The position numbers and the translations under genes are program-made. A stretch of DNA of 63,939 nucleotides, filler included, from Craspedostauros australis (taxonomy: Eukaryota), in NCBI GenBank assembly GCA_030167865.1. It is 5 parts of 5 records of this genome, joined end to end, with 100 filler letters (N's around TTAATTAATTAA, not from the genome) between each part and the next. Parts side by side here need not be neighbours in the genome. Positions count along the whole stretch, not along the records: positions 1 to 20,706 come from JALAGF010003404.1; 4 more parts are not named here. One strand, given 5' to 3'. How positions within the stretch are numbered: the stretch's first letter is position 1; every line of letters starts with the position of its first letter. Positions 1 to 62,049 of this stretch are shown one piece after another. The notes under the pieces are model-generated. The model had not been told where the DNA came from. It was given only the letters and a program-made list of their open reading frames with translations, and ran no database searches.

Positions 1-3000
1 CCGGCCACCTCCAAGTACTCCGTCAAGAACAGGTCGGCCTCCGAACGCTCCTGATCGAACTGGAACAGATTCACCACGATGTGATCACGTCCGTCCCAAA
101 CGCTCACCACGGTTCCTTCCACGCAACGCGCCACCACCACAACACCGTCACCGACATCATCGTAAACCCGCATGGATTTCACGGTGAAGTCGACATCCTC
201 GTCCTCCATCACGCTCGTCATGATGGAGGCGATGTTGGGGCTGTTATCGTGGTCCTTGCTGCTGCGTCCAAGCTGCAGCACAGACTGACGACCGAAGGCG
301 AGCTGGTCCTTCAGCTGCTGTTTCTCAGCACTCAGATCGTAGTCTCGTTGCGAAAACAGTGTCGCGTTGAACTCGTCGTTGTCGAGGTATCTCAGCGTTC
401 CACCTTGCATGACGCTTGGCTTGACCATGAAGGTGTCACCGTACTTGGTGGCGATGGTGTCCTCCACACGTCGGATGCGAGGGAAGGTATCATTCATGTC
501 CACAGTGAGGATGGACAGCTCGAATGCAGGAGCATCCATCTTGGCGCGCTTGGGTTGGACGATGATTTCGGTTCTGGTCAGAGGGTCGATGTCGAGCTTC
601 AAGCGGATCTGCTTGAGAGTGTTGCGACGCCATTCATCCTTCGTGGAGTCTGGAAGGATGGAGACGTAGAGAGGCACGACCGTGTTCTGGAAGATGTTGC
701 GTCGGAATGTCCAGAAGCTCGTGAAGATGCGTGCCATGGCGTACGGTGCTTCCGCATCCAGGATGACAGCTCCGATGGGTTGGTTGTGCTCGCGGATGGC
801 GGATTTGATCTCATCCTCGATCGAATGGCGGCATTCATGCAAGTCAGCAAGGTTGCTGTTGTTGACATCGCCGTCTCCGAAGATGAGGGACTCCATCTCA
901 GGACAGACATGGACCGGGACGATCTTCAACAATCCACTGCTGTTGTTGCTGTTGCTGTTGCTCTTCTCCAATGCGGAGGCAGAAAGACACCTGCTGGATT
1001 GGCTGCCACAGAACACAACCACCATGGAGCCATCCGCAACATCCATCGCATCCGTGATGGCACCCAGCGATGTCGCAAGGAAGTCATCGTCAGCCATCAG
1101 GCTTTCGATGGTGGCTGCAGCTGCAGGTGTTGGAGTGGTGCCGGTGGTAGTGGCAGATGGAACAGCCGCAGTTGCATCCTCCTCGGACGTATCACACTTG
1201 CGGGTGTGAGTGGTGAGATCTGGACCAATGAGCTTCGTGTCTTCCTCCCACGAGTTGTTGCCGTACATTCCAGACACGATGACGCGGTACGACGAGACGG
1301 AGCCCTTTACGGCATCGTTGCCGGCTCCGAGAGCCTTCACCAACGCCGTTCGTGTGGCGTCCATCTTCTCGAAGCGTCCCCACAGATGGATGTCCAATCC
1401 AACGTACGATCGTCCCTTCCACCAGCGGGCGATCACGTATCCCTCCGCCATCATGATCACGATGTCACTGCTCTTATCATCATCATCATCATCCCCAGCA
1501 TCGTCGTCGTCGTCGTCGTCTTTGTTGTTACCGTCGGCGACGATGGATGTGAAACCAAGACCCTCCAGGGCTGTCATCAGCGCAGATTCGATGGTGTTCA
1601 ACGGAATGGCGCAGTGCTCCACCTCGATCACCATCAGCATACCTTCGCTCTTGCCCTTTCGGATACCCTCGGCCTTCTTCTGGTCTTCGATGGCTTCAGC
1701 CAGAGCATCGCAGGATCCGTCTGTGGTTGGATCGTTGATCTTGTAGTCACGCCACAGGTAGTACTGGTGGGGGTAGTCGTCGATCTCTGGCAACAGGAGG
1801 TTGTCGACGCCATGATCCGTCATCTTGTCATGATGGTAGAAATCGATGTGGTTGCTGCCCATGATCATGGACTGGTCGCAGATCATGGGGTTGTCGTAGA
1901 AGTGGACATCCACGGAGTAATCGAAGGTGGCGGAGATCTTTTCGAAGTGCGGTTCGTTCTTCACCATGATACCACCTGGTTTGACGAGCAGTGCCATGGC
2001 GTTGAGGATATCGAGATGCTCGGTGACGGTGAGGCTGGCTCCCGTTTCGGACACGTCCACCATGACGAAGTCGAATGAGTTCATGTACTCTCTGGGGAGG
2101 AGGAGGAGAGACTTGGTGGCATCACCGAACCACCATTCGACCCTGTCATCGTGGAAGTGCGGATCTGTGTGGAACCATTCGAATGCGTTGCGCACGACGA
2201 CCTGATCGAGTTCCAGTCCGATGACGAGCTCGAGGTTAGGGTACTTGAGCACCTCCTGGAGGATCATCGAATCACCACCACCGATGAAGGCGACGCGCTT
2301 CAATTCTGGCAGGTATCTTGCTGCGTAGTTGACGGCGTACTCGTGGTAGTGCGGTCTGTAGTTGTCGCAGATCTGGACGATGTTATCCAGCGTCATGCAA
2401 ACATTCACATCTCCATCATCCTCCGTGCGCCTGCGGAACACGATCTGCTGATACTCGGACATCACCTTTTGCCATTCCTGGTAGTTGGTGAAGTTCCTCA
2501 CAACGTCTGAATCACACGATTCTTGTCTCTCGGGCACGATCTCCTTTTCGGACTGGAGAGTGTGGTAGAGCTGGTTGAGGAAGCATTCGCTTCCAATGTG
2601 ATCAAAGCAGTCCGCTTCGTTCGCCATGGGCGAGTTCGGGTCTTTCAACATGTCTGTGTCGTTGATGGACCGCAGCATATTCGCTGCTGCCAGCAACTCG
2701 GATTCAATGAAATTGACGACGAGGTTCCATTCTTCCTCTGAAATGACATCGGTTGTATTGCGTGCGAATGCCCACTCATCTGGTCCAGAGCTGAGTTCTT
2801 CATGTACCCGAGCAAGCTGGCTGACGTAGATTTCCAGCATCTCTGGTCCATCGTCGTCGATTGGTTCCATGTCCCATTCAACGGTGAACCTTCCTGCACC
2901 TTCATCAGCGCCACCGTGCTTGGACGGATCGTTTTCTTCGATGTCTGCAATGAGCCGCGCGTAGGTCTGTGCGTTGTAGAAGAACGCCCATGTCTGAGGA

Positions 3001-4299
3001 TAATCCGGAATGAAGCCGTACTGGCCAAACAGTTCTGCGAATGCACGAGTCGTGATGGGTAGTGGGGCATGGGGTGGAGTAGAGTCAGAAACGGTTGGGG
3101 GTGCATGGGGTGGCGTGGGCAAGTCATGGAGGTGTGCGCATTGTCAGTTGTTGGTTCCATCTCATGCCATGCAGCGTGGGTAACGTACTGCGCGCTGAAT
3201 TGTATAGTGCAGCGTACGAATGCAGGAGAGACCATTCAGTCGGGGAATATCAAGCTGCTTGAATTCGAACTCGATCCAATTGAAGTCAGGCTGCATGTGA
3301 TACGTTGCGGCGTTGGCACCACTCTCACAAGAGCCACAGCCACGGCCACTCCCATTTTTGCTTCCACTTGGGCTTGTAGCCATCCCACGTACCTATTGTG
3401 CCGTAGTATCTTGGCCTCTCCATCGTGGGTGGATCCAGGTAGGAGTACGCGATGGGTTCGCCAGCTTCGATGGTTCTGGTGGCGAAGAAGGAAATCTCCT
3501 CATCAACACGAGAGTCGACGTTGTCAAGTTCTGGATCGCTGACGTGATTGTAGAAATCGAACATGGGGATGAGGAGGTTGAAGTTGGCTCGGGACACCAC
3601 CGCGATGACGGCACGGTCCGCAACGGGACTCCGCTGTCCCATGCACTCGTTCTCCCAAATGTCCAGCCAGTTGATGCCTTCGAAGGGTGCCAATTGCTGG
3701 TACACCGTCGTTCCTTTGAGAACGGAGTCAAACATCTGCCTCGCCTGTTGGCTCCATGCACTTGGATTCCCAGTCATGTCGGCGTTCATGAGGTAGTTCA
3801 CGTAAGGCGCGAAGTAGGACTCCTCCCCCAGCTCCACTTGCTTGATGAGCTCCGTGACCGTGTGACATTCGAGCTCCACGCTTGGGAATTCATCGTCGCC
3901 CGCCTTGGCAATGATGTGATCCCATGGAATGCGCATCAGCTCTTCGCCTTCTTCGATCCTCTCCTGGGCGAACATGCCGAGTCCAACCTCGGATCCGGAA
4001 TGGAATGCTGTGTCCTTCGCCTTCCTCACGACCTGCTTGTCGTTGAAGAACCCCTCCGGAGCATTGTTCAACCAATCGATGACTTCGTTGATCCTTGCGT
4101 CAGTCGATGGGGAAAAATCTTTGTCAGAGGTGGTGGGCCTTGCCGCGACCATCAACGACGACGATGGTCGAGGATGGGTTGATGCGCAGGACAGCAGGGC
4201 CAAGAGAAAGAGAGTTCTCCATGACAACGGCAGGCTGGCTTTCATCCAGCTGCAGGACGCCCTCATGTTGCTCATTCCTGCCGTCATCCGTGGTGCCAT
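1..4299 (-). CDS. Multidomain SET methyltransferase / aminopropyltransferase (spermidine-synthase-like) / degenerate AdoMetDC fusion; candidate long-chain polyamine synthesis protein. Exons 4299-3393 and 3034-<1; 3' end lies outside the window
   Basis: Exon 1 (part of ORF 3325..4593) has a hydrophobic signal-like stretch TLFLLALLSCAS and SET motifs GLGMFA, LIPMFDFYNH and FFATRTIEAGEPIAYSY. A GT-AG intron at 3035-3392 (ATAG|GTACGT...TCGCAG|AA) restores YGTIELFGQYGF. Manual translation of exon 2 gives LDNIVQICDNYRPHYHE, FIGGGDSMILQEVLKYPNLELVIGLELDQ and FDFVMVDVSETG, then AdoMetDC-like IMMAEGYVIARWWKGRSYVGLDIHLWG. The frame stays open to position 1. Start codon uncertain. Confidence 0.88.
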
Positions 4300-5012
4300 C
4301 GTCGACAATGTCAATTTCTCAGATGGCAGGGATGGTGAACGATGATGATCGGTCTTCGAAGCCTTTGTTCCGAGTATGGTTGCACCTGTGAATTGCATGT
4401 ACCAATCCCGCACAAATCGAGTCGAGTCGAGTACGACTATGGTATGATGGAGAGCGTGGAGCGGGAGATGATGATGATGATGATGATGATGTCTCTTCGG
4501 ATGCGTTCCCTCCACTTTTTGGGTCCTGTCAGTGCGATCACAGCACAAATGTGAGAAGCAAAATCTATCCGTTGGATTTTCGCCTTTTGTCACAGTCGAC
4601 CCAAACGACCGTAGTCAGTCATGTCCCGTTTGTGACGTCACTACGAATGAAAATGGACTAGTCTTGGCTGTAGACTTCCACCATTTGCTTCGGTGAAGTA
4701 CAAGCACGAAGAGGAACGAGATTAGCGCCGACCACTACCCCAAGCGCTTGCGTGGATGCCCGAATGTGTGTTTATGATTTAATTAGATTCTTCCAGGACC
4801 TTGCGGTGTGCTGATGCCAATGGTCCGTAGTCCATTGCCCAGATATCACTCCATTCCATGTTCATATTTCCAGCCACGAACAAGCTGCCCCCGCTTCTGT
4901 CGAGCAAGGTGTTTTATTTCCCCGTCGTTCCGCATCAACACATCTGTACTCCACAAATGCGCGTCATATGAGTGCATGAATGCTACGCCTTGTCTTCTGC
5001 TGTTCTCGCAGC

Positions 5013-8000
5013 TCAAGCAAATGTGACGGTTTCGTCGTCGCTGGCGGCATCTCTGCCGTTGCCTCTGCCGTCACGGTTGCTCCCGTCGGGCTTGTTGGCG
5101 CAGCGTCGGTGAGATGATGAATTGCATGGGATGCTCATCGATTGGCAGGAGGTGGAGTCGTCGGCGTCCTGCTCTGCCTCATCCAGCGTCGCAAAGACCT
5201 TGTCCAGAACTTGGCGCATGTCGGCCTTCAGCGTTTCTTGCAAGTAATCGCGTTCCAGCTTGCGTTGTTTGCCGAGCTTCTTCACGATGGGAGGGACGAT
5301 TTGCTGGAACATGGTGCTCATTTCGGTGCGGATGATGTCGCGGATGGCGTCCATCTCTTCGAACGACACCATCATGTCCTTGCGGTTGATCTCGGCACTC
5401 CGCATTCCATGTTTTGGACGATCGTACTCGTTCGGAGGTTGATGGGCCTCGTTGCTCGCGAGGAAGTCCTGATCGTTCATCGTCAAAGGCGAGGCGTCCA
5501 CGGATCTGAACTTCGAGATGGGATGCCGACGGTGACCATCGCTGCGCTTGGTATTGAGATGATGCTGTGGGTGATGATGATGATGCTGGTGACGCCGGTA
5601 ATGCTGATTCTTACGAGGTGATCGCGATCGATCATGCCGTGGTAATGGTACTGTCGATGGCGCCCGTGCGGGAGGTTTGACGGCATCAGATGACATGAGC
5701 AAGTCATCCAACGTGAGAGATGTCACAGAATCATCTTCATCATCATCATCATCTCCGAAGGTCTTGCCAAACGTCTCCGGGCTCGTATCTGCCTTCTTTG
5801 GAAGCGATGGAAAGTCCTGGGCGCTGGATTTCTCGATGGAACGCTTCATCTTGACCCAGGGCGAGGTTGGGGATACGTCCGGCGTGCTGGGATCGATGCC
5901 GCTTGCCATGCAGGCCATGGACAGACTATGGGCTGCCCTATCCGAGGGTCTCGCTGTTGCGGACGATCCTCGGTTGGAATGCTTTGGTAGCGGAATACCG
6001 CCGCTGAGGGTGGCGCGATGACGGCTGGACCGCAGTATCCCCAACGAGCGCTGCCGGTGCATGACGGGAGGAGTGTGACGCTGCGACAGGGACGCGCGGA
6101 ATACCATGCCATCGCTGTTGCGCCGCATGGAGCGCGGTTCCTCGACTGAATCGGTCGGCGAATGATTGGATTGCGGGTTGGACAGCGCAGGCATGGGTGG
6201 AATCTCTTCATCTTGTTGCAACGCACTGTTGAAATCGAACGATTTGGTGGGAAGGATGGGTTTCGTGTCGGCATCCACCCTGTCCTCGTCGAAGCCGCGG
6301 TTGTGCGCAAGATCTCGAATGTCGGGGTAGGAGACACCGCGTCGCAAGATCATCTCGGGCGATGTGATGGGCGAAATTGGGGAGGCGGTTCCCCTGCTGG
6401 TGTCCACCGATGTCGACAGATGCAGCTGGCAGCGACTCGGCGAGCTGCTGCCATCGCGCGAGGTCAGACGGTTCATCGGCCTCGAATTGACGCTGATGGA
6501 GATTTCTTCCTCGTCGTCTGTATCATCGTGGACATCATCGTGGATACCTGCGTGGACATCACCGCCGTTGTCATTCTCCTCGATTTCATGACAGCGATCA
6601 TTGGCAGTGTCGCTCTTCTCGATGCCATCATCACTGTCGGCATGATGGAAACTTCCGCTGTGCGCACTGTTGGAACTGACAGCAGGTGGCTGGCTGACGG
6701 CAGTAATTTCGGACACAGCAATGGCGGCTGGACCCGACATGGAACTCTTCCGCTTCTTATGCTTGAACTTGCGACGCCGTGCGCGACGCTGCTCCTTCCT
6801 CGCTGTCGTGTGGGAGGATGACGAGGATGCAGATCCCTCGACACAGCGCGTGGGTGCAACGGGAGGCCCTCGCCTGCGACGTTGCTTCTGCGGCAGGTAA
6901 TCATGACGGAAGCTGGTGATGTCGTCCCACAGCGAGTCGCAGCTCTTTGACTTTCCCTTCTGCCAGCGCCTCGTGTGTATTTCCTTGCGGGCCGTGGATA
7001 TGTTATCGAAGGATCTGGGTCGTCGCATGCACTCAGCCGGATGCTTTTCCTCCTTCTTGACCTTCGAATCCCTCCAGTTCTTCGAGCAGCGTCTGCGATA
7101 CAGCGTCGAATGCGAGACTGGTTGGACTGGCGCGTTGGTCGACACGGAGTGATTCGACGAGGAATCCTGGTTGGTTCTGTCGGCATAGGGCTGCAAGTGT
7201 TGCTGCTGCTGTTCTGGTTCGAATTGCATGTGCATTTGGAGGATATCCTCCACTGACGATATGGACGGTTCGGAGAGGGCCGGCACGCTGGATGGATAGC
7301 TCGTGCTTTCACCACTCGAACCGGCGCCATACGGGAACGAGGATGACGATGAGAGCTGCACCGACCGAGTCCTTCGGATGCCCTCGGATACGCGCAGGAC
7401 CTCCACTTCGCTGTCGGATGAGATGGATGCCGCGAATGAATTGCGACTTGACGAGCGTTGGCTGTTGCTGTTGCTGTTGCCGCTGCTGACATGGTTGCTT
7501 GTGGTGGTGTCATTGGTATTTGCGTGAGTAGCAGCTTTGGCTGTGCTCGCTGAATGCGGATCAAGGGACACTTCCGTCGCCACTGCTTCTCCTGCGGTTG
7601 TCAATGGAATATTTGCAGATCCCGGCGACCTGGACGCCGAGGATGACGAGAATGATAATGATTCCGGATCTGCCGATTCATCCGGATTGGATGTAGTCGT
7701 TGCCGTTGTTGTTATCGCATGGAAAGCTTGATGGTCATGTCCTTGCAGTTGTTGCAGACTTGACGATGAGTCGCGTTGGTAGGCGAGGGTGTCATCATTC
7801 TTGAGAAAACTGAGATCGCGACTGCTGCCACCAAACCATGGCACCGTCTGCTCTGTGGCATCCGTCAAACGTTTTTGGAACAGGCGGGGCTTGGGATTTG
7901 ATTGTGGTGCAGATCGAATGTTGCTGTGGCAGTGCTGTGGTCGGCTGTCCATGTGAGTGTCGCCCTCATGAGTGTTGTCGTCGTCCTCAGCATGCTGATT

Positions 8001-9074
8001 CTGTTGCTGATCATTGAGACCAATTTCAATGTCGAAGTGAGGATTGTGCGCATCGGTACCGGTTGGAGAAGCGGGGAACAATGAGTGGCTTGGCATCACT
8101 CTCGCTGTTGTCGTTGATGCTGATGTTGTTGTCGTGGAAGGTGGCAGCGATGCCGATTTGGTTGGACGTTGGCGCCGTGGTGACCATGATGCTGGTGGAA
8201 GTGGAGATGCAGGCCCCAATGGTTGCTGCGTTCGCCGTCCTCTGAGTGATGTGTCATGGAAGCCCGCGGGTCCGGCCATTTGCATTTGCATTTGCGCGTG
8301 AGTTTGTTGTTGCGTTTGAGGCTGCAGCTGCATGCTGGTCTGACTGGTGTTGAGGATGCTGGGAGTCTGAAGGCTGTAGAAGGAGCTGGCGCTGTTGGAA
8401 AAGAAGGAGGTGGTGGACTCTGTCCAGAACCTGTTGCTGTTGGGTCGCTTCGGTGACAGAGATTGGACGGAATGATGGTGGCTTGACGAAGTGATGGTGG
8501 GCGCCGCCGTAGTCATTGTGGTCTGGGAAAGCTGGAAGTCGATGGAGGCCATTGCATCCATGTTGCGTTGCTGTTTGGTCAAAGCAGGTGTAGGTGTAGG
8601 TGCAGAAGTGGTGGTAGGTATAGAAGCGGGAGTGGGGGCAGAAGCCGACGTCAAAGCTGTAGTCGATGTTGACATGGATGGTGTGGATGCTTTGGATGGC
8701 TTGGAAGTTGAGGCTCTGTTCTGCTTCTTCGATGTCTGCTTGTGTCTCTGGGTCAACGAACGAAGGAACCCCTTGAAGCGTGGCATGGAAGAGTTTCTGT
8801 TGCCTCTGTCGCTGTTGCCATTGTTGCTGTTACTGCCATTGTTGCTATTGTTGCTATTGTTGCTATTGTTGCTATTGTTGCCATTGTTGCCATTGTTGCT
8901 ATCAATGGTCTCAACAGCATCGGAAGTATGGACGGCATCGGCAGTATGAATGGAAGGGACGCTGGCCGATGGCATGGTCGGCAGACAAGGGTTGCCACCG
9001 TCTTCGCTGCCGCAATCGCAGTCTCCGTCTGTGGCAGCAGTTCTCGAAGCGAGGTTCGGGACGTTGCTGGCCAT
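5013..9074 (-). CDS. Hypothetical 1353-aa low-complexity, largely disordered protein
   Basis: Long uninterrupted ATG ORF, rich in S/T/N/Q/H, with a basic NLS-like patch (RRARRRKFKHKKRK) and a helical C-terminal segment. No recognisable domain. Confidence 0.55.
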   Translation of the reverse strand: MASNVPNLASRTAATDGDCDCGSEDGGNPCLPTMPSASVPSIHTADAVHTSDAVETIDSNNGNNGNNSNNSNNSNNSNNGSNSNNGNSDRGNRNSSMPRFKGFLRSLTQRHKQTSKKQNRASTSKPSKASTPSMSTSTTALTSASAPTPASIPTTTSAPTPTPALTKQQRNMDAMASIDFQLSQTTMTTAAPTITSSSHHHSVQSLSPKRPNSNRFWTESTTSFFSNSASSFYSLQTPSILNTSQTSMQLQPQTQQQTHAQMQMQMAGPAGFHDTSLRGRRTQQPLGPASPLPPASWSPRRQRPTKSASLPPSTTTTSASTTTARVMPSHSLFPASPTGTDAHNPHFDIEIGLNDQQQNQHAEDDDNTHEGDTHMDSRPQHCHSNIRSAPQSNPKPRLFQKRLTDATEQTVPWFGGSSRDLSFLKNDDTLAYQRDSSSSLQQLQGHDHQAFHAITTTATTTSNPDESADPESLSFSSSSASRSPGSANIPLTTAGEAVATEVSLDPHSASTAKAATHANTNDTTTSNHVSSGNSNSNSQRSSSRNSFAASISSDSEVEVLRVSEGIRRTRSVQLSSSSSFPYGAGSSGESTSYPSSVPALSEPSISSVEDILQMHMQFEPEQQQQHLQPYADRTNQDSSSNHSVSTNAPVQPVSHSTLYRRRCSKNWRDSKVKKEEKHPAECMRRPRSFDNISTARKEIHTRRWQKGKSKSCDSLWDDITSFRHDYLPQKQRRRRGPPVAPTRCVEGSASSSSSHTTARKEQRRARRRKFKHKKRKSSMSGPAAIAVSEITAVSQPPAVSSNSAHSGSFHHADSDDGIEKSDTANDRCHEIEENDNGGDVHAGIHDDVHDDTDDEEEISISVNSRPMNRLTSRDGSSSPSRCQLHLSTSVDTSRGTASPISPITSPEMILRRGVSYPDIRDLAHNRGFDEDRVDADTKPILPTKSFDFNSALQQDEEIPPMPALSNPQSNHSPTDSVEEPRSMRRNSDGMVFRASLSQRHTPPVMHRQRSLGILRSSRHRATLSGGIPLPKHSNRGSSATARPSDRAAHSLSMACMASGIDPSTPDVSPTSPWVKMKRSIEKSSAQDFPSLPKKADTSPETFGKTFGDDDDDEDDSVTSLTLDDLLMSSDAVKPPARAPSTVPLPRHDRSRSPRKNQHYRRHQHHHHHPQHHLNTKRSDGHRRHPISKFRSVDASPLTMNDQDFLASNEAHQPPNEYDRPKHGMRSAEINRKDMMVSFEEMDAIRDIIRTEMSTMFQQIVPPIVKKLGKQRKLERDYLQETLKADMRQVLDKVFATLDEAEQDADDSTSCQSMSIPCNSSSHRRCANKPDGSNRDGRGNGRDAASDDETVTFA

Positions 9075-12000
9075 GGTTGTGGCTGTTGGATGGGTGAGTT
9101 GTTGGTTGGATTGATGGGTGGATGGTTAGATGGATGAATGGTTGCTTGAGTGGCTGGTTGGATGAATGGTTCGATGGTTGGTTGTGGATTGTGAGTGGCC
9201 GATTAGTTGTTCGGCTGATCGATGGATTGGTTGTGAAGTATGGTTGGCGTTGCGTTGTGGGACAAGGCCAAGGAAGGCAGAGAATGACGGAGAGAGCACA
9301 ATGTCGCGGACTTTTACTTCTATGTTGACGGAACGAGGATGGTCAGCAACAGAGGAATAGGAGTATCCGTGTTGGAGAAGTGGCAAGTCTTTTTCTCTTT
9401 CCGTTCCGTTCCGCTCAGCTCTGCCTTCGTTCTGTCTCCGTTCTGTCTCGGTTCTGCACGTGCTGTAGTACTTGCTATACTCGTATGTGGTATTATACGA
9501 CCTATGTGCTCTATGGGATGCTTGTTGTGCCCGTATTTTCGTCTTGCTTTTGTCGCCTTGTTTGTGTGGTTGGGTGTATGGGTGTTATGAGTTGTGAATT
9601 GTCAAGCTTCGCGGTGTATTGCGTTCGTGTTTGCGTTTGTGCTTGTCACAGTGTGTGTCTATCACAGTGTGTCTGACTGTGGATGTTATGAATGATGAAT
9701 GATCCGAGCGAAGCGCAGCGTTGCGCGTGTCAGCGTGAATTATGGCCAGAATGTGCCCAAAGTGGCGTTTGTGAACGTGATCTTGTCGTCGAATGTCCTT
9801 AGGTGTTGATCGTGGTTTGTCGTTGTCATCGGTGTGTTTCTGGCGGATCGTGTTCTTTTTGGTTATGAATTATGAAGAGGCGGACTTTTCCACGTCCCCC
9901 CTTGGTCGCTCACGCAAGTATCGTGACGATGAGACACTTTGGTTTCCTCCGTTCGATGTGGTGCAGAGTAAATGTGCAGGAGGGTAGCAAGGTGCTTGTG
10001 GTGTGGGTCCAATGCTGTTGAGAGCCTTTGGCTGCTACAAGAGTGCGAATGTGTTCGAGCTCCTGGTCAATGTTGTGGCTGGACGTTGCGTTGCGTTGCT
10101 TTGCTTTGCGTTGTGTTGTGGGAGAGGATAGCGACGAACAACAAAGACGAAAGTCGACCGAGCAGGTCTGGAGGAGGATGTGATCCTTGTTGGCACAGCT
10201 CCTCCTCCTCTTCTCTGTCTGCCTTTTCGTCACAATCCAACCGATACAGATGATGGATCGACACGCACTCTCGTTCTGCTTTGGTTGCAATTGCAATTAC
10301 ACTTGCACTTGCACTTGCAATGCCACCCTCTCTCTCTGTCTGGATCAGCAAGGAAGGAAGGCTGATGGTGCGTATGGCACAACCTTGTGAACGAGAGTAC
10401 GCTGCACCTCCTCTTGGCCTTCACTCGCACAGTGGCCGACGTGATCACCTCCAACGGAGCGTTGGACGGTGCCGTCTCCACAATCCAAACAAGAAGGAGC
10501 CGCAAGGTACTCCACCAAGCTGGTGCGTTGCTTGACTGATACGCAGATCGCCTGATAAGCTGGTTGCCAGGATGGCTGGACGATCGCTGAACTCAACCTA
10601 CTGATGTCTCCTTCTTCTCTTGCCTTCAGCCATCAATCGATCAATCGGTTGCTTGACGAAGCCGACAAGGCGATCCACCGGTTGATGGATGTTCGAAGGC
10701 TCGATGTCCGATGTTGGATGGGGTGACTTGAGATGGCAAATGAGGGTTGGTTTGGGTACCTGGCGGAAGTTGGCAGTGATGCCTTTCTGTCCGAATGACG
10801 GTCCGATCGTGATGCTGGATTGATGCCTGTGGACATCCAAACCAAGACCACACGACCTTCCCCTGTTAGTTATTTTGTGCCCCTTCCTGTGGTCACGATC
10901 AACAAACCGCCGGCACCGAAATTGTTGCCAATCGCCATCAATGAATGAACGAACGGACGGACGAATGCACGGAATGATGCAGGTGTAGTGATGGTTGGGT
11001 GAACATCCCCATGTGTTATACCGACGAACCAGTGAGCACAACCACAATCACAAACACTGTCACCGTAAAACAAGCTGATCGTCACAGCACTGAGTCAAGT
11101 GCCAACTCATCAACAATCAGCATTGGCATGTCGCGGTGCGCGATGATGGATGGCGAGATTTCGATGACAGACAGGTTGATGGGCGTTCCTCTCTCATCAT
11201 TTTCGTCGAACCGCCATGGCGCATTCGTGGGTGGGTATCATCGGGACCAAAGGCAAGAAGTTCGCACCATTTTTTCAAATTTGTGGGCCAACTCCGCGAG
11301 GTTGTACGTTGCGTGGTTCCAAGTGTTCATGTCGAGCACATGGCAACATTCGAAAAAATGGCGACCCTTCGACAAAATTGGCTGGGCTTAATTGTGCCGC
11401 TTCTCGCCACCGGAAGAAAACATCCCTCCCATCGGACTTTCTCGGACTTCGTCTTGTTTCTTGGATGATCCGTCATTAATCGAAGTGGTCGACTATTCGT
11501 ATTGGTTCCATCGAGTCATTCAACTGAAATGATGAATCGTGTTTCAATTGAAGCCGAGTCACGAATTCTAGCCGCGATGACAACTCCGTCGAGTCGGAGT
11601 CGTCCACGACTTGGTTGGTTTGTTTTTTTGCGTTGGCCGCAACGTCGTGTTCTGCCATGTGTCGTGGGTTGCGGAGCGCGGTTTGTCGCAATTCTGCCGC
11701 GTTCGGTGTGTTCGTTCCGAAGAAGCGCGAGAGAGACGGAAGGGAGACATCTTGTGCGCTTCGTCTTTTGGTGTTGCGGTGGTTTGTGGTTGTGGTTGTG
11801 GTTGTGTTTGCAGTTGCGATGAACTCGTGCGAGCGTCTTTCCGTTGCTGGGTGAGAGCCGCATCCATGTGATTGCGAGGGCTGTTACGACATCGCCTGTG
11901 AGCAAGTCCATGATGGTGGGAAGGGACGGGACCCCAATGCGCCAGTTGGTTCCACTCCGATGTTGGCATGCAACTCCGATTTACCCTCTTCTTTTTAGAT

Positions 12001-15026: not shown

Positions 15027-18000
15027 TCACTCCATGTCCAACGTCGATCGCCAGGCATCCCGATCGGCCTCGTACGTTTGCTCTTCGCCGGAGCTGCATT
15101 CCTTGGCAAGGGTCTTGGTGTTCTGGTGTGGCACGGGTGGTGCGGACAGGGCGCGCTTCACCGTGGAAGGCTTCTGACTTGCGTCGACAAGCGGAATGTG
15201 CGAATCATCCTTGGACTGAGTGGGTTCCGCACTGTCATCGCCTTCCTTGTTGTCGTTGTCTGCCTTTTCCACTGCTGGCTTCTCCGACTCGGAAGATGAC
15301 TCGGCTGCGGCGGGCGTATTGTCGGTTGCAGTTCCGTTCTGTTCCGCCGCCACCTTCTCCCACTCACCGTCCTCCATCTTGGTGGGGCTCCTGGGTTCTT
15401 CCACCAGGATCGGAGCCACCGGGAGCGTGAGTAGCGGTTGCTCGTTGGTTTGTTCAACCGCAGCTTCTGTTTGGGTGGAGTCGGTATTGGCTGTAGACAC
15501 TTTGACGCCGCTGCCTCCTTGTTCGTCTTCACCAGCACCGCTGTCACCGCCGCCGGCGTGTTCATGATCATGTTCATCATCGCTGACCTCGCCCATGTAC
15601 TCACCCTTCTCCCAGACACCCTTGCGCACGAGCCGCTCTTCTTCGCCGCCACCAGCAGTGACGATCTCGTACTCGGCGCCACGACCATGGAAGGCGCCGG
15701 CGTGAAATCCACCGGCGTACTTGTGCTTGGTGGTGCGCACGGTGGTGACGTCCTTCTGCTTGGAGCGCATCATGGGTGCCGAGACGGACGTCTTGGTGGT
15801 CTGCGTCCACTGCAGCGTGCCGGGTCCGTGGTAGACGCCGTTGGCCCATGATCCGCGGTAGGAGCAGCTGGGACCGAAGGTGAAGACGCCCTGACCGGAT
15901 CGCTGGCCGTGCTCGAACATGCCTTCGTACTTGTCGCCGTTGGGGTACCAGAACTTGCCCGGTCCGTGACGCTCGTCGTGGCGGTACTCTCCGACGAAGC
16001 GACGGCCATCCTTCCAGATGTACTTGCCAGGACCGTGGCGAAGGTTGATGTGGTACTGGCCTTCGTGGAAGTCGCCCATGTGGACGAACATGCAACGGCC
16101 GTGGCCTTGGCGGTGTCCCTTGGCCCAGAATCCTTCGTAGATGCGGTTGCCGTCCTTGTAGACCATGCGTCCGACGCCGTGCGGTCGCTGCGTCGGTATG
16201 TGGAGGATGCCAGTGTACCTGCCCGAGTTGTTCTGGCCATCCCACACCAGCTGATCCACGACGGCCTTGCAGTTGTCATCATCATCCTGCTTGGTTTCAT
16301 CCGCGCTGGTTTTGCTGTTGCTGTTAGTTTTGGCGGTGCCGTTGCTGTTGGTGTTGCTGCTGCCACCACCGAATATGTTGGGCACCATGAGACCGGAGAG
16401 GAGGGAGGACGAGGTGATGCTGTTCCTGGACGGATTGAGATCATCGCGACCGAGCTTGGAACGTTGGGCCGACGCCGACAAGGTCAAGGCAGCCAGACCG
16501 CCCTTCATGGTGGAGTTGCCCATGAGCTTGGCGGCATCGAGCTTCCTGCGCGGCGTTGCGCTGCCCGGCGACAGGACGGCATCCGCCATCTTGGAGAAGA
16601 TGCCCTTCTGCTGCTCCGCCTTCTGCTTCTTCTCGTATTCCGGCAGCGGCATGCCGTTGATGAATTCGCCGTCGAAGATGACTTCGCCGTTGGAATCGAC
16701 GTGACGGCCTTCCCCATGGAACTTGCCGTACTCGAAGGTTCCCGTGTAAACGGCGCCCGTTTCGGAGATGAGAGCGCCTTGACCATGGTACTGACCCTGG
16801 AACCATTGTCCGTCGTAGGAGGTTCCGTCGCGACCGAAGGTGAACTTGCCTTGACCCTGACGTTGGCCGTGCACGAAGTCTCCCTGGTATAGATCTCCCG
16901 TTTCGGGGTAGAGGAAGCGGCCGCTGCCATGTCGCACGCCGTTGTACCAGTCCCCCTTGTAGTGTCGGCCGTCTGCGTACCAGTACTCCCCGTCCGGTCC
17001 ATGACGCTGGTTGCTGTCGAAGTTTCCGACGTACTTGTCCCCGTTCTTCATCTGCATCCTGCCGAAGCCGTGGTACTTGCCGTCCTCCCAGAATCCTTCG
17101 TATTCGGCCACGGGGTTGTTGGCAGTGGAAGGTTCATTCATGGCCACATCATCGTGATAGTTACTGCTGCTGTTGTTGTTGTTGCTGTCGTCCGTGGCGG
17201 TGTAGTTCATTGTGCCCACACCCTGCGGCAGATCGCGAAAGAGGATGCCCTTGTAGAGTCCGTAGAAGCCGCGTGCGTCCCTGCATCTTTCCTGGTTGAC
17301 CACGATTGTGTTTGCCTCGCCAGACGTGTCCGGTGCTTCGCGTTGATTTGTCTGCGAGTGCGATTGGGACTGCGAGGTGCTGGCTGCCGAACGGCTGGAT
17401 GAGTTGGACGTTAGGGTCTGTCCTGTTGCCGTGCCTGCATGTGGGCCTGCCTGCGTGGCCGCGGTTGCAGTGGACGTTGAGTTTGAAGTCAAGGTGCGAC
17501 CCAATGAACCGGTGCTGCTCCTGCGAGAGTCCACAGCAGAGGCAGCAGAGGCAGAAGAAGCATCATTGATATCTCCAATGCCATCGCTGATGCTGCCGCC
17601 CATAGTTCTGGAGGCACGCGAGGAGCCGGTGTGGCTGACGATCATGGGAGTGTCATGGTTCCACATGCCATCATGGCGCACCTTGCCATCGCCCATGGTC
17701 TCGATGCCGTAGCCATGGCGCTGGCCCGCGACCCAGGAGCCCTTGTAGGTGGCCAGGAGGGACTCCGTCTTGTCCGTGGTGAGATTGCGGCCCACGCAGC
17801 GCCTGCAGGGGTAGGTGAGGACGCCCTGGCCGTGGTACTTGCCCTTGACCCATTCTCCCACGTACTCCAGCTTCTGCGCGTGGTGCACGTAGACCCCGTG
17901 GCCCTGCCTCTGGCCGTGCACGAAGTTGCCCTTGTAGTAGGACAGGTTGCCCCAGTGGTAGTGTCCCTGGCCGTGGCGTTGGTTCTGCACGAAGTCCCCT

Positions 18001-18380
18001 TCGTAGACCCTCGGTTCTGATGACAGCGCCGCCGTTGCTGCTGCTGCTGCGGAAGCACCGGACTGAGTCTTCTTGCTGAGCTTCCAGGTGTACCTGCCCG
18101 TTCCCTGCCTCTGGCCGAACTCGTGCATGCCCTCGTAGACATCCCCGTTGCGCATGAGGCACTTGCCATGGCCGTGCCATTCCCCGCGGTTCCAGCTGCC
18201 CACGAACGTGTCGATGGGCGTCTGCGTCACAGCTCCGATGTAGCAGAACGTGCCGTTGTCGCCATGGGGCAATCCGCCGGCTGTTGGCAAGATGTGCCCG
18301 CTGTACACCCCAGGGTTGCCCTTGGAGTCGAACACGCGGGAGTCCGACACGTACAGCAGCTTCTCTCCGTTGCTTTCCAT
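15027..18380 (-). CDS. Large MORN-repeat protein with three repeat blocks
   Basis: Many YxGxW/FxxGxxHGxG repeats in three clusters, separated by low-complexity linkers, with an acidic tail. Confidence 0.9.
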   Translation of the reverse strand: MESNGEKLLYVSDSRVFDSKGNPGVYSGHILPTAGGLPHGDNGTFCYIGAVTQTPIDTFVGSWNRGEWHGHGKCLMRNGDVYEGMHEFGQRQGTGRYTWKLSKKTQSGASAAAAATAALSSEPRVYEGDFVQNQRHGQGHYHWGNLSYYKGNFVHGQRQGHGVYVHHAQKLEYVGEWVKGKYHGQGVLTYPCRRCVGRNLTTDKTESLLATYKGSWVAGQRHGYGIETMGDGKVRHDGMWNHDTPMIVSHTGSSRASRTMGGSISDGIGDINDASSASAASAVDSRRSSTGSLGRTLTSNSTSTATAATQAGPHAGTATGQTLTSNSSSRSAASTSQSQSHSQTNQREAPDTSGEANTIVVNQERCRDARGFYGLYKGILFRDLPQGVGTMNYTATDDSNNNNSSSNYHDDVAMNEPSTANNPVAEYEGFWEDGKYHGFGRMQMKNGDKYVGNFDSNQRHGPDGEYWYADGRHYKGDWYNGVRHGSGRFLYPETGDLYQGDFVHGQRQGQGKFTFGRDGTSYDGQWFQGQYHGQGALISETGAVYTGTFEYGKFHGEGRHVDSNGEVIFDGEFINGMPLPEYEKKQKAEQQKGIFSKMADAVLSPGSATPRRKLDAAKLMGNSTMKGGLAALTLSASAQRSKLGRDDLNPSRNSITSSSLLSGLMVPNIFGGGSSNTNSNGTAKTNSNSKTSADETKQDDDDNCKAVVDQLVWDGQNNSGRYTGILHIPTQRPHGVGRMVYKDGNRIYEGFWAKGHRQGHGRCMFVHMGDFHEGQYHINLRHGPGKYIWKDGRRFVGEYRHDERHGPGKFWYPNGDKYEGMFEHGQRSGQGVFTFGPSCSYRGSWANGVYHGPGTLQWTQTTKTSVSAPMMRSKQKDVTTVRTTKHKYAGGFHAGAFHGRGAEYEIVTAGGGEEERLVRKGVWEKGEYMGEVSDDEHDHEHAGGGDSGAGEDEQGGSGVKVSTANTDSTQTEAAVEQTNEQPLLTLPVAPILVEEPRSPTKMEDGEWEKVAAEQNGTATDNTPAAAESSSESEKPAVEKADNDNKEGDDSAEPTQSKDDSHIPLVDASQKPSTVKRALSAPPVPHQNTKTLAKECSSGEEQTYEADRDAWRSTLDME

Positions 18381-20706
18381 GTTGTTGTCAACGCTGTTGT
18401 TAACGCTGTTGTTAACGCTGTTGTTAACGCTATTGTGGTTGTTCTATGAGAGTTCAACGATTGTACTATTCTATTGAATTATATGAGAATGGGAATGGGA
18501 ATGACGATGGCGCGAGGATCCCTGCTTTCTTGCTCACCAACTTGTCTGGATTCTTGGTCACCAACTTGCTTGGATTCTTGCTCACCGACTTGTTCGTTTT
18601 CTTGGTGGATTGTCTTGTTTCCGTTCTCGTCTTCTTGCCTGTCATCTTGGTCGTGGTGGCACCACTCTGCTTGCGTGCATTTTTCGCAGTTTTGGTGGTT
18701 TCGTTTTCCGTGGATTCGTGAATCAACCACGACGCGAAACCATCGACTCAAACGAATGCTTTCATCAGACCATTTAGACTGATATGGATAGAATGGGTAC
18801 TGCAGTAAATACTTCGTCACCAACACAAGGATCATCGTCCTCTGTCAGATGAGATGAGGCGAAGCAACCGAACAAGGACAGAGGATTGGCAGATAAAGAG
18901 AGTGTAATAGTAGTATGGTACTATACCATGGACGATCGACTGAATTGGCAGAGGAAATGTTGTTGGCATGGTCTGGCGATTGCAGGACGCAGAGATGGTG
19001 ACATTCCATTTCGATCACGCTGCACTGCATCTGGCACGAGTATGGGACGTGCCCATGGTGCCACACATGCCTGCCCACTGCCCCACAGGTCGTCATGCCT
19101 GGCGAGTTGCGGAAGTATGGTACCAGCCCATTCTCGATCGATCACCACCCTCGCAGGCAGGTGTCTGGGAGAATTGCTCTACGCGACTGTTGCTGGAGTA
19201 ACACAGTGATTGGTCGTCGTTTGGGATGTGCTCAAGCTGATGGCGGTTCACTCTTCCACCTGTGACCGTTGCCGCCAAATGGATACAGCAACCAACTCCA
19301 TCATCAACCAACGTCAGCTGTTGATGGCGATTGTGATTGCTTCGCTTTTGTCACGCCTTGGGCGAGGAGAGCGCACGGTGCAAGGATGATAGATCGTACG
19401 GGGCTTCGCAACTTCTCCAGACACGCCTTGTCGTTGGTGGATGCCAACCACGACATGTGTCTCCAAATAGAGGGAGAGAGAGCGGGGCTCTCGTGACCTC
19501 TTGACTTCGTGAGATGTCCGACCACGGGTGCGCAGCCGAACACTCTTTTCCTTTTTGGATGCCGTGCATGTCTGGTTTGGTGGCAGGTCTGTGGCCATGT
19601 TGCTCTCCTCCCAACCACTTTCAACTCATTCCTATCCATTTCTCGCAGCGCGGCTCTCCTGCTCTTGTCGAGCGTCTTGCAACTTGGACACGTGACATCT
19701 TTATTGCTTCAACCCTTGAACGTGGCTCCGTGGAAAGACGTCTTCGGAGCACTCGCGGGGGTGCTCCCACCTTGCTGAGTCTTCCATCGTCACCCAACGT
19801 TGATGACTGGTTCTCCATGTGATCTCTGTGAGAAGAAGCGCGCTTGTACGTATGTATGGCAGGCAGGGCAGACACAGACATTCCTACCGAACAGGTAGGC
19901 TCTGACGGGTTATGATGGACCATCACCCAGGTTTGGAAGCGGGCTCGAAGATCTCACCTGTGCCGTTCTGTTCCTTGTGAACTCGGATGGTAGTCGTATG
20001 GCGTGGCATGATACTCGTGCGTATAATAGATTGTATAATACATGCTCTGCTGCAGTTTCATCATGAAAGATGTGTCTGCTTTGTCAGCAGTCTTGCGAAA
20101 CAGAGATCGATGAATCTTCATCATCCCTGTGAGGAAGCGCCTTGAGTTCTCGCTGGTTTAGGTGAGACCTGTTTGCTTGTGTTGGTGTGATCGTTGTGCT
20201 GTGCATGAGGAAGCGCTTGACAATCGACTGTGACGGCGAGACTCCATTGCCTCCTCGACCTGTCATACATAAGGGAGATATCGCATGTAAAATGAAGCCA
20301 CCCCTGGAACCTGTCGTGGTGACAACTAGTGGGGAGCTCTCCCCAAATGTTCGCGTTCGNNNNNNNNNNNNNNNNNNNNNNNNNNNNNNNNNNNNNNNNN
20401 NNNNNNNNNNNNNNNNNNNNNNNNNNNNNNNNNNNNNNNNNNNNNNNNNNNNNNNNNNNNNNNNNNNNNNNNNNNNNNNNNNNNNNNNNNNNNNNNNNTT
20501 GTTTCCATTCACAGCAAACAAAAATGAATGCTCAACGCTTCCACATGCATGTTCGTGCTTGTTGGTATCACTGCCTACTGTTCCGTTTCCGTGTTTCTGT
20601 CATACAGGTCATATGTAGCACATGCCTTGTATGTGTTCCCACTCTAGATTTCCCCAAAGCACAGCCCCAACCCTCCTCCATCCCCAGACCGCTGCCGGCC
20701 CATCCA

Positions 20707-27138: not shown

Positions 27139-28518
<1,380 letters not shown>

Positions 28519-33888: not shown

Positions 33889-36800
33889 CTATCGATACTG
33901 GAGCACGTGATGCTTCTGCACCAGCATATCAACTTTCTTGTTGGCGCCCCACTCTTTGTACAGACGGATGGACTCCTGCAGGCGGGCTTTTGCTTCCTCT
34001 TTTTCACCTCTGCTCGCTAGGAACGCTGAGTACCTCTCATTCGCAAGCGCCTCGTCGTGAGTATACTTGCGCTCGCGCATCATCCGGATCGCCTCTTCGT
34101 ATTGCGTTGGTGCTCTTTCGTCTCTCTTCTTCAAAAAGGACGCCTCCGCTTCCAGCAACGTGATGTAGTGCTCGCAGTTAGGATTTCCTTTCTTCTGCCA
34201 TCGTTTCAGCACCTTCAAGAACTTGCGAGCGTGCTTGGTGTAGTGCGATGGGTTGTTTTCGTGGGCCATGCAGAAGCAGCAAAGGGCACTTTGGAATAGC
34301 GCTGCATAAAGGTTACAACTGGATGGTGCCTCCTTGAGCCACTTGAGGCAGGATCTGATCCCAATGTCTGATCCAAGCTGATATTCTCCAAAGTACATCG
34401 CAAGGTACAGCTTATGTATTGCTTTCACTCGATCCTGCGCGACTGTCATTGAATAGCCCTCCTCGAACATCTGCTCGGTCTCGTCGAAAGCGTCTCCGAT
34501 GAGCTTCGTGGTGTGATTGGAGGCGCCTCGAAGGTTCAAGGTACTCTGCCATGCCACCAAGTTTGCTTCGTATTGTGCGGTTTGTTGGAAGTCTCTGATG
34601 GTATTCGAATGGATGGATGCATCTTTATCGAGGGACGCAAGTGGCTTCCCTATGCATAAGCCCACCAAGATATAGCAGTACAATGACCAAGCTGCTGATT
34701 CTACATCGCCAGTCGACATACCCAATCTGGATGCCTCCAGGACTCCCTCGAAGCTCTCCGCAAGCGGATGTCTCCAATGATGCAGGCACCCGTAGTAGTT
34801 CAACTCGATCTTTCCATCCAAACTGCGATCATCCGATGCTTTCATGATCTTCAATGCCATGCGTCCGCATTTGTAGGTCAAGTCGATGTCCTCGAGAAGG
34901 AAAGCAATGAGGACACCCTGGAAGGTTAACATGGATGCTGAATGCGTCATGATTCCCAGTTTCAAGCTCAACCTCAAAGCCTTCACTACCACCAGAGGAA
35001 TCAACTCAGGTGCATTGACGTATGATATCGTGCTGAGCTTGTCCAATGTCTTCATGATGGCCTCCTGGTTTTCATCTTTCGATAACGAAAGGTTGTGTCC
35101 CAGTTCTGTCTCCAGCCGCCGGATGGTGCTCTTCGCCGTCATCAGGCCTCGAAGGACGTAGATCGCTTGGCCAAAGCTCGATGATGGAAGAGTGCAGCCG
35201 AGCTGGGACAGTAGATCTAGACACCTATCCACAGGTCCCTCTCCACCGGCACCGTGCATTCCGGCAGAGGTGATGTCGATCAGCACGTGGTATGCACGCA
35301 CTTTGCTCATTATGTCGTAGTCCTGATTGATGATGGCCTCGCAGTACGATTGTGCCGTGGCGAAGTTGGTGGCAACGAAATGACTCTCTGCCGCCGATGA
35401 GTACAGCTCCAGGCTTTGCTCGGCCAGCATCTCCCAGTGGTTGTCGGGGAGGAGGTCGATTGCCATGGTGAAGTACGAAGATGCCAGATGGAAGGCCGAT
35501 GCGTTGGCAGCCTGCTGGCCGGCCTTGTGGTTGAGCATGATGATCTTCATTCGGCGATCCAGCTTTCGATGGCTGGGCATGAGATCGGGCCTCGTATTGA
35601 GGAGGTTGGCGATCATGAAGATCTTGTCGCCGAGCTCAACATCGGACAGTGCGTACAGCAAGATCTCACCGACACGATACTTGAGCTCTGTGAGCTGGTC
35701 ATCGGTTGGTATCATGGACAGCGCGGCTTCTTGGACCTTGTCGTGGATGAAGGAGTACTGGAGGGACTTGGATCGCTTCGTGTTTGTGCTTGTGTTTGTG
35801 CCGTTGGCGTTGGCGGTCTTGTTCGTGTTGGACATTCGCCGGGAGCTCTCATCGGTTGATGCAGAGCGGTTCGAACGAGTACGTGATGATTTGACCTTCT
35901 CGATCAACGTTTCCGAACAGAACGTCTTGAGCATGATCATGATCTCTGCCTCTTTCGTCATCTTCGTGACTTGGAAAACCTCGCGGAAGAACTTGGAGTG
36001 GCTGGAATGGATGAAGAGACCTGCGATGACTGCACATACGTGCGAAGCAGAGAATGTCGCCCCGAGACAGGCCGCAATGGACAGCACCCAGTGCTCGGAT
36101 GCGGACTTTCGAAGTCTCGTCTTCATGAGGTCCATGATGTTGTCGCCGGAAGTCGTTGAGTTGGATGTGATTGCGTTGATGTCCCAGGTCCATGGCGATT
36201 GGTGATCGGTATCATCCGATGCCACCATGGTTGTTGCTGATGGAGTTGCTGTTGCAGTTGCAGTTGGAGTTGGATTGATGGTGATGAAACCATCCGTCAC
36301 GAGAGAGTCGAGGAACTGCTGGATGAAGAACATATTGCCTCCGGTCTTGGCATGCACGACCTGAGCCAACGGCAGAAAGTGTGCAAGCGACGATTTGGCT
36401 TCAAGATAATCACCATCATCTTCCTGATGCGATGACACGTAGAAAAGCCGTTGCAGGTACTCGGCGACCCCATCAACGCTCAAGTCCTCGACAGAGAGCT
36501 TGACGATTCGGATGGACCTCTCTCTCTTCGACTCTTCCAATGACATCAACATCGCCTTGAGACCCTGATTGACATCGAGCATGTTCGAGCGATACAGACC
36601 AATGATGGTGAGTGAGGCACTGCGGCTGTCCATCAGCCAGGATTGAATGAGGCTCAATGATGCTCGATCGGCCCATTGCAGATCATCGATGACCATCACC
36701 ACGGGGCAGTAGCTGCAGAGGATCTGCATGAACCTCCGGAGCATGTACGTGATTCGTTGTGTGTGGTTCTTGTAATTGACGGAAGATCCTGCTCCTGCCA

Positions 36801-61876: not shown

Positions 61877-61949
61877 GGTTGTTCTCTTGTTTGTTCGTTG
61901 GAAGGGTTTGGTTGTGCGTGGGGACATGTAGTATTGTAATATGCTGTTG

Positions 61950-62049
61950 NNNNNNNNNNNNNNNNNNNNNNNNNNNNNNNNNNNNNNNNNNNNTTAATTA
62001 ATTAANNNNNNNNNNNNNNNNNNNNNNNNNNNNNNNNNNNNNNNNNNNN
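61950..62049. other. Artificial contig-joining spacer
   Basis: 44 N + TTAATTAATTAA + 44 N. Confidence 0.95.

Follow-up and report, generated by a model that had tools for sequence, protein, structure and literature searches.

The window analyzed here, 63,939 nucleotides of DNA from the pennate diatom Craspedostauros australis (GCA_030167865.1), carries on its minus strand, at positions 1 to 4299, a gene for a fusion of a signal-peptide-like N-terminus, a SET domain, an aminopropyltransferase domain, and modules that resemble S-adenosylmethionine decarboxylase (AdoMetDC). Judged by sequence comparison, the gene is a divergent addition to the already proposed diatom family of SET-aminopropyltransferase-AdoMetDC fusions. 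In this family glycine replaces the serine that would give rise to the pyruvoyl cofactor, which makes it very probable that the AdoMetDC-like modules are non-catalytic and not decarboxylases. With dead decarboxylase modules, the fusion protein is very probably unable to make its own aminopropyl donor, which must then come from elsewhere.

The pyruvoyl serine is replaced in the AdoMetDC-like modules

AdoMetDC makes its pyruvoyl cofactor from an internal serine, and the decarboxylase requires the pyruvoyl group. The position of this serine was read from a family-profile alignment, in which the family motif E-G-Y falls opposite S-E-S-H of 1tlu and opposite S-E-A-H of 1tmi, the non-processing S63A mutant. 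In module 1 of the window protein, EGY is encoded at 1437..1445 (minus strand, as for all positions in this gene), with glycine in place of the pyruvoyl serine. Two further positions, His68 and Cys83 of the Thermotoga AdoMetDC, which we take to be active-site residues, are occupied by arginine and by tryptophan (DIHLWG, 1377..1394), respectively.

A residue census was performed on a 71-row alignment and, separately, on 223 of 226 proteins with a match to module 1. The Ser63 position held glycine in all 71 rows and in 219 of the 223 proteins; of the other four, two had cysteine and two a gap, and serine was found in none. Arginine stood at the His68 position in 63 rows and 198 proteins, and tryptophan at the Cys83 position in 71 rows and 220 proteins. 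The serine-equivalent column of module 2 was glycine in 62 of the 71 rows, the window protein included. A preliminary description of this DNA had presented the fusion as a candidate long-chain polyamine assembly line. As a self-contained line it has to be given up, because serine is absent from the pyruvoyl position in all 223 proteins and from module 2 of the window protein as well. The papers on the subject that were searched yielded no mention in print of the serine's loss; the 2011 article by Michael, to which the family is credited, may already note both this and the second, degenerate transferase-like domain described below.

The aminopropyltransferase domain retains donor-binding and catalytic motifs and the predicted fold of spermidine synthases

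An aminopropyltransferase domain, consisting of an N-terminal beta domain and a Rossmann core, was recognized at 1761..2516 (PF01564, E 6.2e-14). The sequence of the domain contains the motifs YQ (2445..2456), YHE (2340..2348), GGGD (2271..2282), GLELDQ (2202..2219), FGDATKS (2109..2129), and VDVSET (2043..2060). A profile of 29 family sequences matched solved spermidine synthases with E 1e-13, and YQ, LD..Q, YHE, GGGD, E.D, GDA, and the first aspartate of the strand-4 motif could be aligned to the spermidine synthase of Plasmodium. The spermidine-synthase motif for binding of S-adenosylmethionine (AdoMet) that had been reported in the long frame is GGGD, aligned to the GGGD of the Plasmodium enzyme. 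Residues G251, G253, and D254 of this motif are invariant in the 71 rows and G252 is nearly so; the aspartate presumably binds the aminopropyl amine of the donor.

Structure prediction led to the same assignment. The model of residues 1-424 of exon 2 had a mean predicted local distance difference test score (pLDDT) of 80.9 and matched six spermidine synthases with Z scores of 20.4-22.4 (229-239 residues aligned, root mean square deviation (rmsd) 2.8-3.5), among them 2e5w (22.4), 1uir (22.3), 1iy9 (22.2), and human spermidine synthase 9q41 (20.8). Human spermine synthase scored 16.9, and generic methyltransferases scored 15 or less. Foldseek matched the model to 1iy9 with E 1.7e-14. An aminopropyltransferase fold, on which the preliminary description depended, is therefore found in the model. 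The motifs and the predicted fold suggest a domain able to bind decarboxylated AdoMet.

The C-terminal half combines two AdoMetDC-like modules and a degenerate transferase-like domain

The AlphaFold model of the C-terminal 586 residues was resolved with VIA-align into three units, residues 36-186, 212-455, and 486-586. The first of these is module 1 (1257..1655), assigned by its fold match and by the family profile. It matched the AdoMetDC structures 2iii with Z 12.8 and 1vr7 with Z 12.6 (115 residues aligned, rmsd 3.6). Foldseek searches with the C-terminal half gave the Thermotoga AdoMetDC structures 1tlu, 1vr7, and 1tmi at target-normalized template modeling (TM) scores of 0.73-0.75, and the top match was human spermine synthase 3c6k (E 2.8e-6). 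A loop of module 1 carries an acidic, mostly aspartate insert (approximately 1467..1532) that was not present in the 12 homologues aligned. The insert drew spurious matches and short high-depth contig pieces. An acyl-CoA synthetase match (E 0.0095), obtained when the single sequence of module 1 was compared with PDB sequences, was driven by the insert and was rejected as unrelated.

The middle unit (396..1127, model residues 212-455) was assigned by fold match as a degenerate domain of the class I methyltransferase fold. It scored Z 9.1 with 3c6k (over model residues 39-423), 8.9 with 3gjy, and 7.0 with 2e5w, and generic methyltransferases scored 7-8. In the column census, V-x-C-G-x5-C (987..1013) was found at the place of GGGD; the aspartate of a D-x-S-A-P-like strand motif is kept (744..764). 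In the model this Rossmann domain is closest to the aminopropyltransferases but degenerate, and its relation to the active transferase is one of predicted fold. As a sequence-recognizable duplicate of that transferase it was rejected, profile-profile comparison having yielded a probability of 0.5% and a local match limited to 13 columns at the strand-4 motif. Another weak stretch, also at this motif, appeared against 2e5w.

Module 2 (3..305, model residues 486-586) is cut by the window start and was likewise assigned by fold match. The human AdoMetDC proenzyme 1msv aligned with Z 12.0 to 202 residues spread over model residues 34..586, and Trypanosoma brucei 5tvf_E matched the C-terminal model with Z 11.0. 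In the model, the two AdoMetDC-like modules pack together as the halves of eukaryotic AdoMetDC do. Direct comparison of module 1 with module 2 in hhalign gave a weak sequence likeness (probability 70.7%, E 3.8e-5, 46 columns). The C-terminal pseudo-enzyme module was present in every family member examined.

One intron joins the SET exon to the long frame

Open reading frames (ORFs) were listed from stop to stop with open ends. In this listing the minus-strand ORF 3325..4614 (429 amino acids) contains the SET part, and the minus-strand frame 3..3143 (1047 amino acids) is free of stops up to the window start. The longer frame had looked hidden because frames that run off the window are listed only under the open-ends option. 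Pfam returned nothing at E≤0.01 for the plus-strand ORF 3..2078 (691 amino acids), which runs antisense to the coding frame and is therefore a shadow of it. The listing bears out the preliminary description, according to which the ORF view held only the SET exon and an antisense shadow, and a single intron at 3035-3392 joined the SET exon to a frame of about 1000 codons.

Exon 1 (3393..4299) begins with the ATG at 4299..4297 and comprises 302 codons, ending with the first base of codon 303. The intron (3035..3392) is 358 nucleotides long, of the GT..AG type and in phase 1; the donor reads G|GT with the GT at 3392-3391, and the acceptor AG lies at 3036-3035. Exon 2 (1..3034) contributes 1010 full codons from 3032 and is open at the window edge. 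A scripted join of 3393 to 3034 resulted in 1313 amino acids with zero stops, and read-through of the intron meets a stop 22 codons past the junction. BLASTP gave a single alignment across residues 302|303 in 44 of the 90 homologues described below, with a typical span from residues 20-73 to residues 1290-1313. When the window protein was aligned with 30 full-length homologues in MAFFT, no gap appeared at the junction, and the YGT-YGF spacing of six residues there was the same in the window protein and the homologues. The stop-free product and the homology across the junction make a strong case for the two-exon gene model. Contigs of run X1 aligned to the window covered only 1-674 and short low-complexity pieces at 1483-1520, and no joint.

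Alignments that reach the last residue encoded in the window leave 42-48 residues of the homologues unmatched, and the conserved C-terminal tail of the family lies beyond the window and is missing from the window protein. On this comparison it is the window edge that cuts the gene, which is not truncated in itself; about 42-48 C-terminal residues lie outside the window. No second copy of the fusion gene was found within the window.

The SET domain follows a signal-peptide-like N-terminus

The SET domain was matched by Pfam at 3439..3984 (PF00856, E 7.3e-10, 39.6 bits where the cut-off is 22.4) and, past the intron, reaches as far as the conserved YGF motif that exon 2 carries at its start. Both the NH motif (FDFYNH) and the tyrosine near the C-terminal end (AYSY) are kept. 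They align to YNH and NSY of the homologues and, in a weak pairwise match (E 0.26), to FVNH...FDY of SUV39H2. The end of the SET domain and a linker made up of strands and long helices, as given by predicted secondary structure (pLDDT 47-92), occupy 2517..3032. No structural match covering the linker between SET and transferase was found among the listed fold-search matches.

The signal-peptide-like N-terminus (4174..4299) contains the hydrophobic core TLFLLALLSCA at 4183..4215, residues 29-39. This is the most hydrophobic 11-mer in the whole protein (mean Kyte-Doolittle value 2.4); no 19-mer exceeds a mean of 1.5, and none resembles a membrane helix. The true start codon is ambiguous among several in-frame ATGs, because four more in-frame methionine codons lie between the ATG at 4299 and the core (five in all) and a further in-frame ATG lies 33 codons upstream, at 4398..4396. 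Upstream of the start codon, the open frame also holds a repeat-flagged run of eight histidine codons (approximately 4456..4499), which is probably 5' untranslated region. A methionine start with a hydrophobic core in the first 50 residues was found in 27 of 30 SET-bearing homologues, as against 0-2 of 30 in four other stretches of 50 residues, and the core of the window protein aligns with the short N-terminal hydrophobic cores of the homologues. Two of the three homologues that lack such a core are N-terminally incomplete, and the third has a longer N-terminus. The segment that the preliminary description read as a signal peptide is a putative one, aligned with signal-peptide-like segments in these 27.

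In the mature part, 14 of 16 cysteines recur in 25 or more of 31 rows. A C-terminal xEL, a motif resembling signals for retention in the endoplasmic reticulum (ER), ends 7 of 70 homologues (P0062, P0069, P0073, P0075, P0080, P0082, and P0083). Cysteine-rich tails that are ShK-like by eye were seen in 6 of 70 (P0009, P0019, P0073, P0080, P0082, and P0083). PF01549 is annotated for P0056 and P0080 only, and P0080 is among these six. The conserved N-terminal core, the conserved cysteines, and the xEL and cysteine-rich tails fit a predicted soluble protein of the secretory pathway. Given these tails, different paralogues may sit at different stations of that pathway.

The gene belongs to a diatom fusion family

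A search with exon 2 retrieved 90 homologous proteins with E values down to 2.3e-151. PF01564 was annotated in 88 of the 90, PF00856 in 33, and PF02675 in 24, and the 16 homologues named by organism were all from diatoms. The search with the C-terminal 586 residues yielded at least 410 clusters at 50% identity (E≤1e-3). The window protein is 25-45% identical to the exon-2 matches and reaches 49% over the C-terminal part with fragment P0014. It retains the invariant residues of the family along its whole length and aligns collinearly over full length with homologues of 1200-1310 amino acids. The domain order of putative signal peptide, SET, aminopropyltransferase, and AdoMetDC-like part that had been described for the window is accordingly that of diatom proteins of the same architecture. 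Matches of 520-690 amino acids were considered as stand-alone C-terminal cassettes and rejected; the 23 inspected were truncated gene calls that start at an internal methionine in the transferase or in module 1. Two homologues from Nitzschia sp. Nitz4 (P0075 and P0077, scaffold164) lie approximately 1.7 kb apart according to their source names, which suggests a tandem duplication of the fusion gene in that organism.

Michael reportedly described the diatom SET-aminopropyltransferase-AdoMetDC fusion family in 2011 and proposed a role for it in long-chain polyamines. Three reviews (PMC12029483, PMC3820600, and PMC6356823) report AdoMetDC-aminopropyltransferase fusions in diatom genomes, sometimes with an additional histone N-methyltransferase domain, as candidates to make and methylate long-chain polyamines, and call the function of these fusions uncharacterized. 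A fourth (PMC12803844) counts 32 Nitzschia inconspicua fusion proteins that contain an aminopropyltransferase domain. The four credit the family to Michael 2011 (FEBS Lett 585:2627), and they agree with the earlier remark that such fusions had been proposed as makers of long-chain polyamines through chemistry that is largely unproven.

Other genes in the window

Directly upstream of the fusion gene and on the same strand lies a low-complexity frame of 1370 amino acids (5013..9125, minus), rich in Ser/Thr/Asn/Gln and with histidine runs, for which no Pfam match was obtained at E≤1e-5. A frame of 2368 amino acids at 40161..47267 (minus) combines a guanylate/adenylate cyclase domain (E 4.8e-47) with a cyclic-nucleotide phosphodiesterase domain (E 8.1e-26). 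Further frames encode MORN repeats (15027..18443, minus), KRR1 (27139..28518, minus), AAA_16 (33889..37791, minus), CRAL_TRIO (53373..56324, plus), and a TauD-family dioxygenase (60272..61993, minus); these five have no evident link to the fusion gene. The KRR1 protein is 64-80% identical to those of the raphid pennate diatoms Nitzschia, Cylindrotheca, and Seminavis. Together with the diatom names among the fusion homologues, this places the host among the diatoms, probably as a raphid pennate for which no close relative has been sequenced.

Discussion

Our preferred explanation, which we hold as a whole with about even confidence, is that the window carries a pennate diatom gene that is intact and has two exons, a member of the SET-aminopropyltransferase-AdoMetDC-like fusion family, and that the product is a secreted fusion enzyme with a donor supplied in trans and a dead C-terminal scaffold. 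The signal peptide would be removed first. The aminopropyltransferase domain would add aminopropyl units from decarboxylated AdoMet made elsewhere to an amine, either that of a growing polyamine or that of a polyamine-bearing lysine of a silaffin-type protein, and the SET domain would N-methylate the same substrate using AdoMet. The C-terminal half would perform no chemistry. Its two dead AdoMetDC-fold halves would pair around a decayed second aminopropyltransferase-like domain, and the whole could act as a scaffold or substrate-holding module, by analogy with the AdoMetDC-like N-domain of human spermine synthase. The N-domain of that enzyme mediates dimerization.

Several observations weigh against this explanation. 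The second aspartate of the D-S-S-D motif is glutamate in the transferase domain (VDVSET compared with VDSSD in the Plasmodium enzyme), and in the MAFFT alignment the SET domain lacks the CxxC cysteine pair that most homologues carry just before the exon junction. Module 1 was called from a predicted structure and a family profile with weak E values against the PDB (2e-4 to 2e-3), and the pairing of the modules comes from a single AlphaFold model (pLDDT 81.7, predicted TM score 0.63). The window protein gave no match to the Pfam family AdoMet_dc (PF02675), whether searched as the whole frame at E≤0.1 or as four separate segments at E≤10. Of the three Pfam domains anticipated in the preliminary description, SET and Spermine_synth were recovered with the E values given above and AdoMet_dc was not; the AdoMetDC-like modules stand by fold and fail by Pfam on the window's own sequence. 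The AdoMet_dc cut-off was reached in five of nine homologues scanned, and the failure on the window protein together with this partial recovery fits a diverged pseudo-enzyme. Any retention signal of the window protein lies in the C-terminus beyond the window. Expression, location, and chemistry of the fusion protein are predictions, as are its routing to the silica deposition vesicle and any effect on polyamine length or methylation, the link to silica is drawn from taxonomic restriction and the literature, and the entry of AdoMet and decarboxylated AdoMet into the secretory lumen needs explaining.

If the AdoMetDC-like modules were active, the protein would make its own donor as well as extend and methylate the chain. 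This would suit the AdoMetDC fold of module 1, the five homologues that reach the AdoMet_dc cut-off, and the name of AdoMetDC-aminopropyltransferase fusions used in two reviews (PMC12029483 and PMC6356823). Given a pyruvoyl position that is glycine in 219 of 223 proteins and never serine, arginine and tryptophan at the presumed catalytic positions His68 and Cys83, and a module 2 that also lacks the serine in the window protein, we consider an active decarboxylase very improbable. That the gene is a pseudogene or its model wrong is scarcely credible. The model is built from sequence and homology, its start codon is ambiguous, and its 3' end lies beyond the window; against this stand 1313 stop-free codons after one canonical splice, a junction that is ungapped against 30 homologues, and the retention of the invariant family residues.

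Two other readings concern the substrate. The enzyme may modify proteins only, the SET domain methylating lysines of secreted silica-associated proteins and the transferase building oligo-propyleneimine on the same lysines, with free polyamines made by other enzymes. SET domains are protein-lysine methyltransferases, and the predicted entry into the secretory pathway would bring the protein to where silaffins are made. PMC11554505 ties diatom-specific SET proteins to cell-wall proteins as well as to polyamines. Against this reading, the PF00856 annotation is missing from 57 of the 90 homologues, some of them truncated gene calls. The evidence on substrates favors neither side, and this protein-only role appears possible if somewhat unlikely. 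A role unrelated to silica, such as polyamine or protein methylation chemistry of a general kind, whether along the secretory pathway or on the cell surface, would agree with the fact that nothing in the window ties the gene to silica, the neighboring MORN, KRR1, cyclase-phosphodiesterase fusion, CRAL_TRIO, and TauD genes being unrelated. The restriction of all named homologues to diatoms, in a family of 410 clusters, fits a diatom-specific trait and makes such a role quite improbable.

The preferred explanation, a secreted fusion enzyme that depends on an external donor, can be set beside several known systems. With the fusions of Michael 2011, the window protein shares the three domain families, a proposed role that is biochemically unproven, and collinearity with the proteins of Phaeodactylum (P0052), Nitzschia inconspicua (P0048), Chaetoceros (P0074), and Cylindrotheca (P0030); it differs in its poly-Asp insert and in the missing cysteine pair of the SET domain. 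Human spermine synthase 3c6k likewise has a non-catalytic AdoMetDC-like N-domain followed by a domain of the aminopropyltransferase fold. In the window protein, however, the transferase fold after module 1 is degenerate, the active one lies upstream, and a second AdoMetDC-like half is added. Bacterial AdoMetDC (1tlu/1vr7 and Aquifex 2iii; PF02675) shares the predicted fold of module 1 and a weak, alignable sequence similarity, whereas the pyruvoyl serine and the His68 and Cys83 positions are replaced family-wide in the diatom fusions. As in human AdoMetDC (1msv) and the T. brucei enzyme (5tvf), two half-domains of one chain form one sandwich in the model, and like the T. brucei prozyme, a dead paralogue, the fusion would retain a dead AdoMetDC fold for a non-catalytic role. 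Unlike either, the window protein has a whole Rossmann domain between the halves, and its chain contains no active AdoMetDC partner.

Diatom-specific, ER-targeted SET-domain methyltransferases are said to have been described by Nemoto et al. in 2020. Citing that work (Mar Biotechnol 22:551), PMC11554505 links diatom-specific SET proteins to cell-wall proteins and polyamines, and the ER-targeted SET methyltransferases are cited in PMC11151724 as well. The window protein resembles them in a SET domain placed behind a putative signal peptide, in restriction to diatoms, and in a role that has been suggested for cell-wall proteins as well as long-chain polyamines.

A more speculative proposal, which we think unlikely, is that the C-terminal half is the fossil of a tandem-duplicated aminopropyltransferase-AdoMetDC unit. 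It would now form an intramolecular pseudo-dimer that holds the chain, the donor, or the product nucleotide and makes the single active transferase processive. Under this proposal the pyruvoyl serine would have been lost from both decarboxylase copies and the donor site from the second transferase, and the pseudo-dimer, kept in every family member, would carry the invariant glycine and tryptophan at its former active site. If true, a processive transferase would explain diatom chains of up to about 20 units.

Biosynthesis and methylation of the long-chain polyamines in diatom silica walls are unproven, and the fusion family is the standing candidate for both; the window gene itself contributes one divergent member. 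As the modules in 223 family proteins very probably cannot form the pyruvoyl cofactor, enzyme assays would need decarboxylated AdoMet from outside. The dead modules also make explicit the matter of how the donor reaches the secretory lumen. The most interesting outcome is a conserved, apparently dead AdoMetDC sandwich into which a decayed transferase-like domain is inserted. The C-terminal half would thus be a conserved pseudo-enzyme module, the role of which is testable by deletion.

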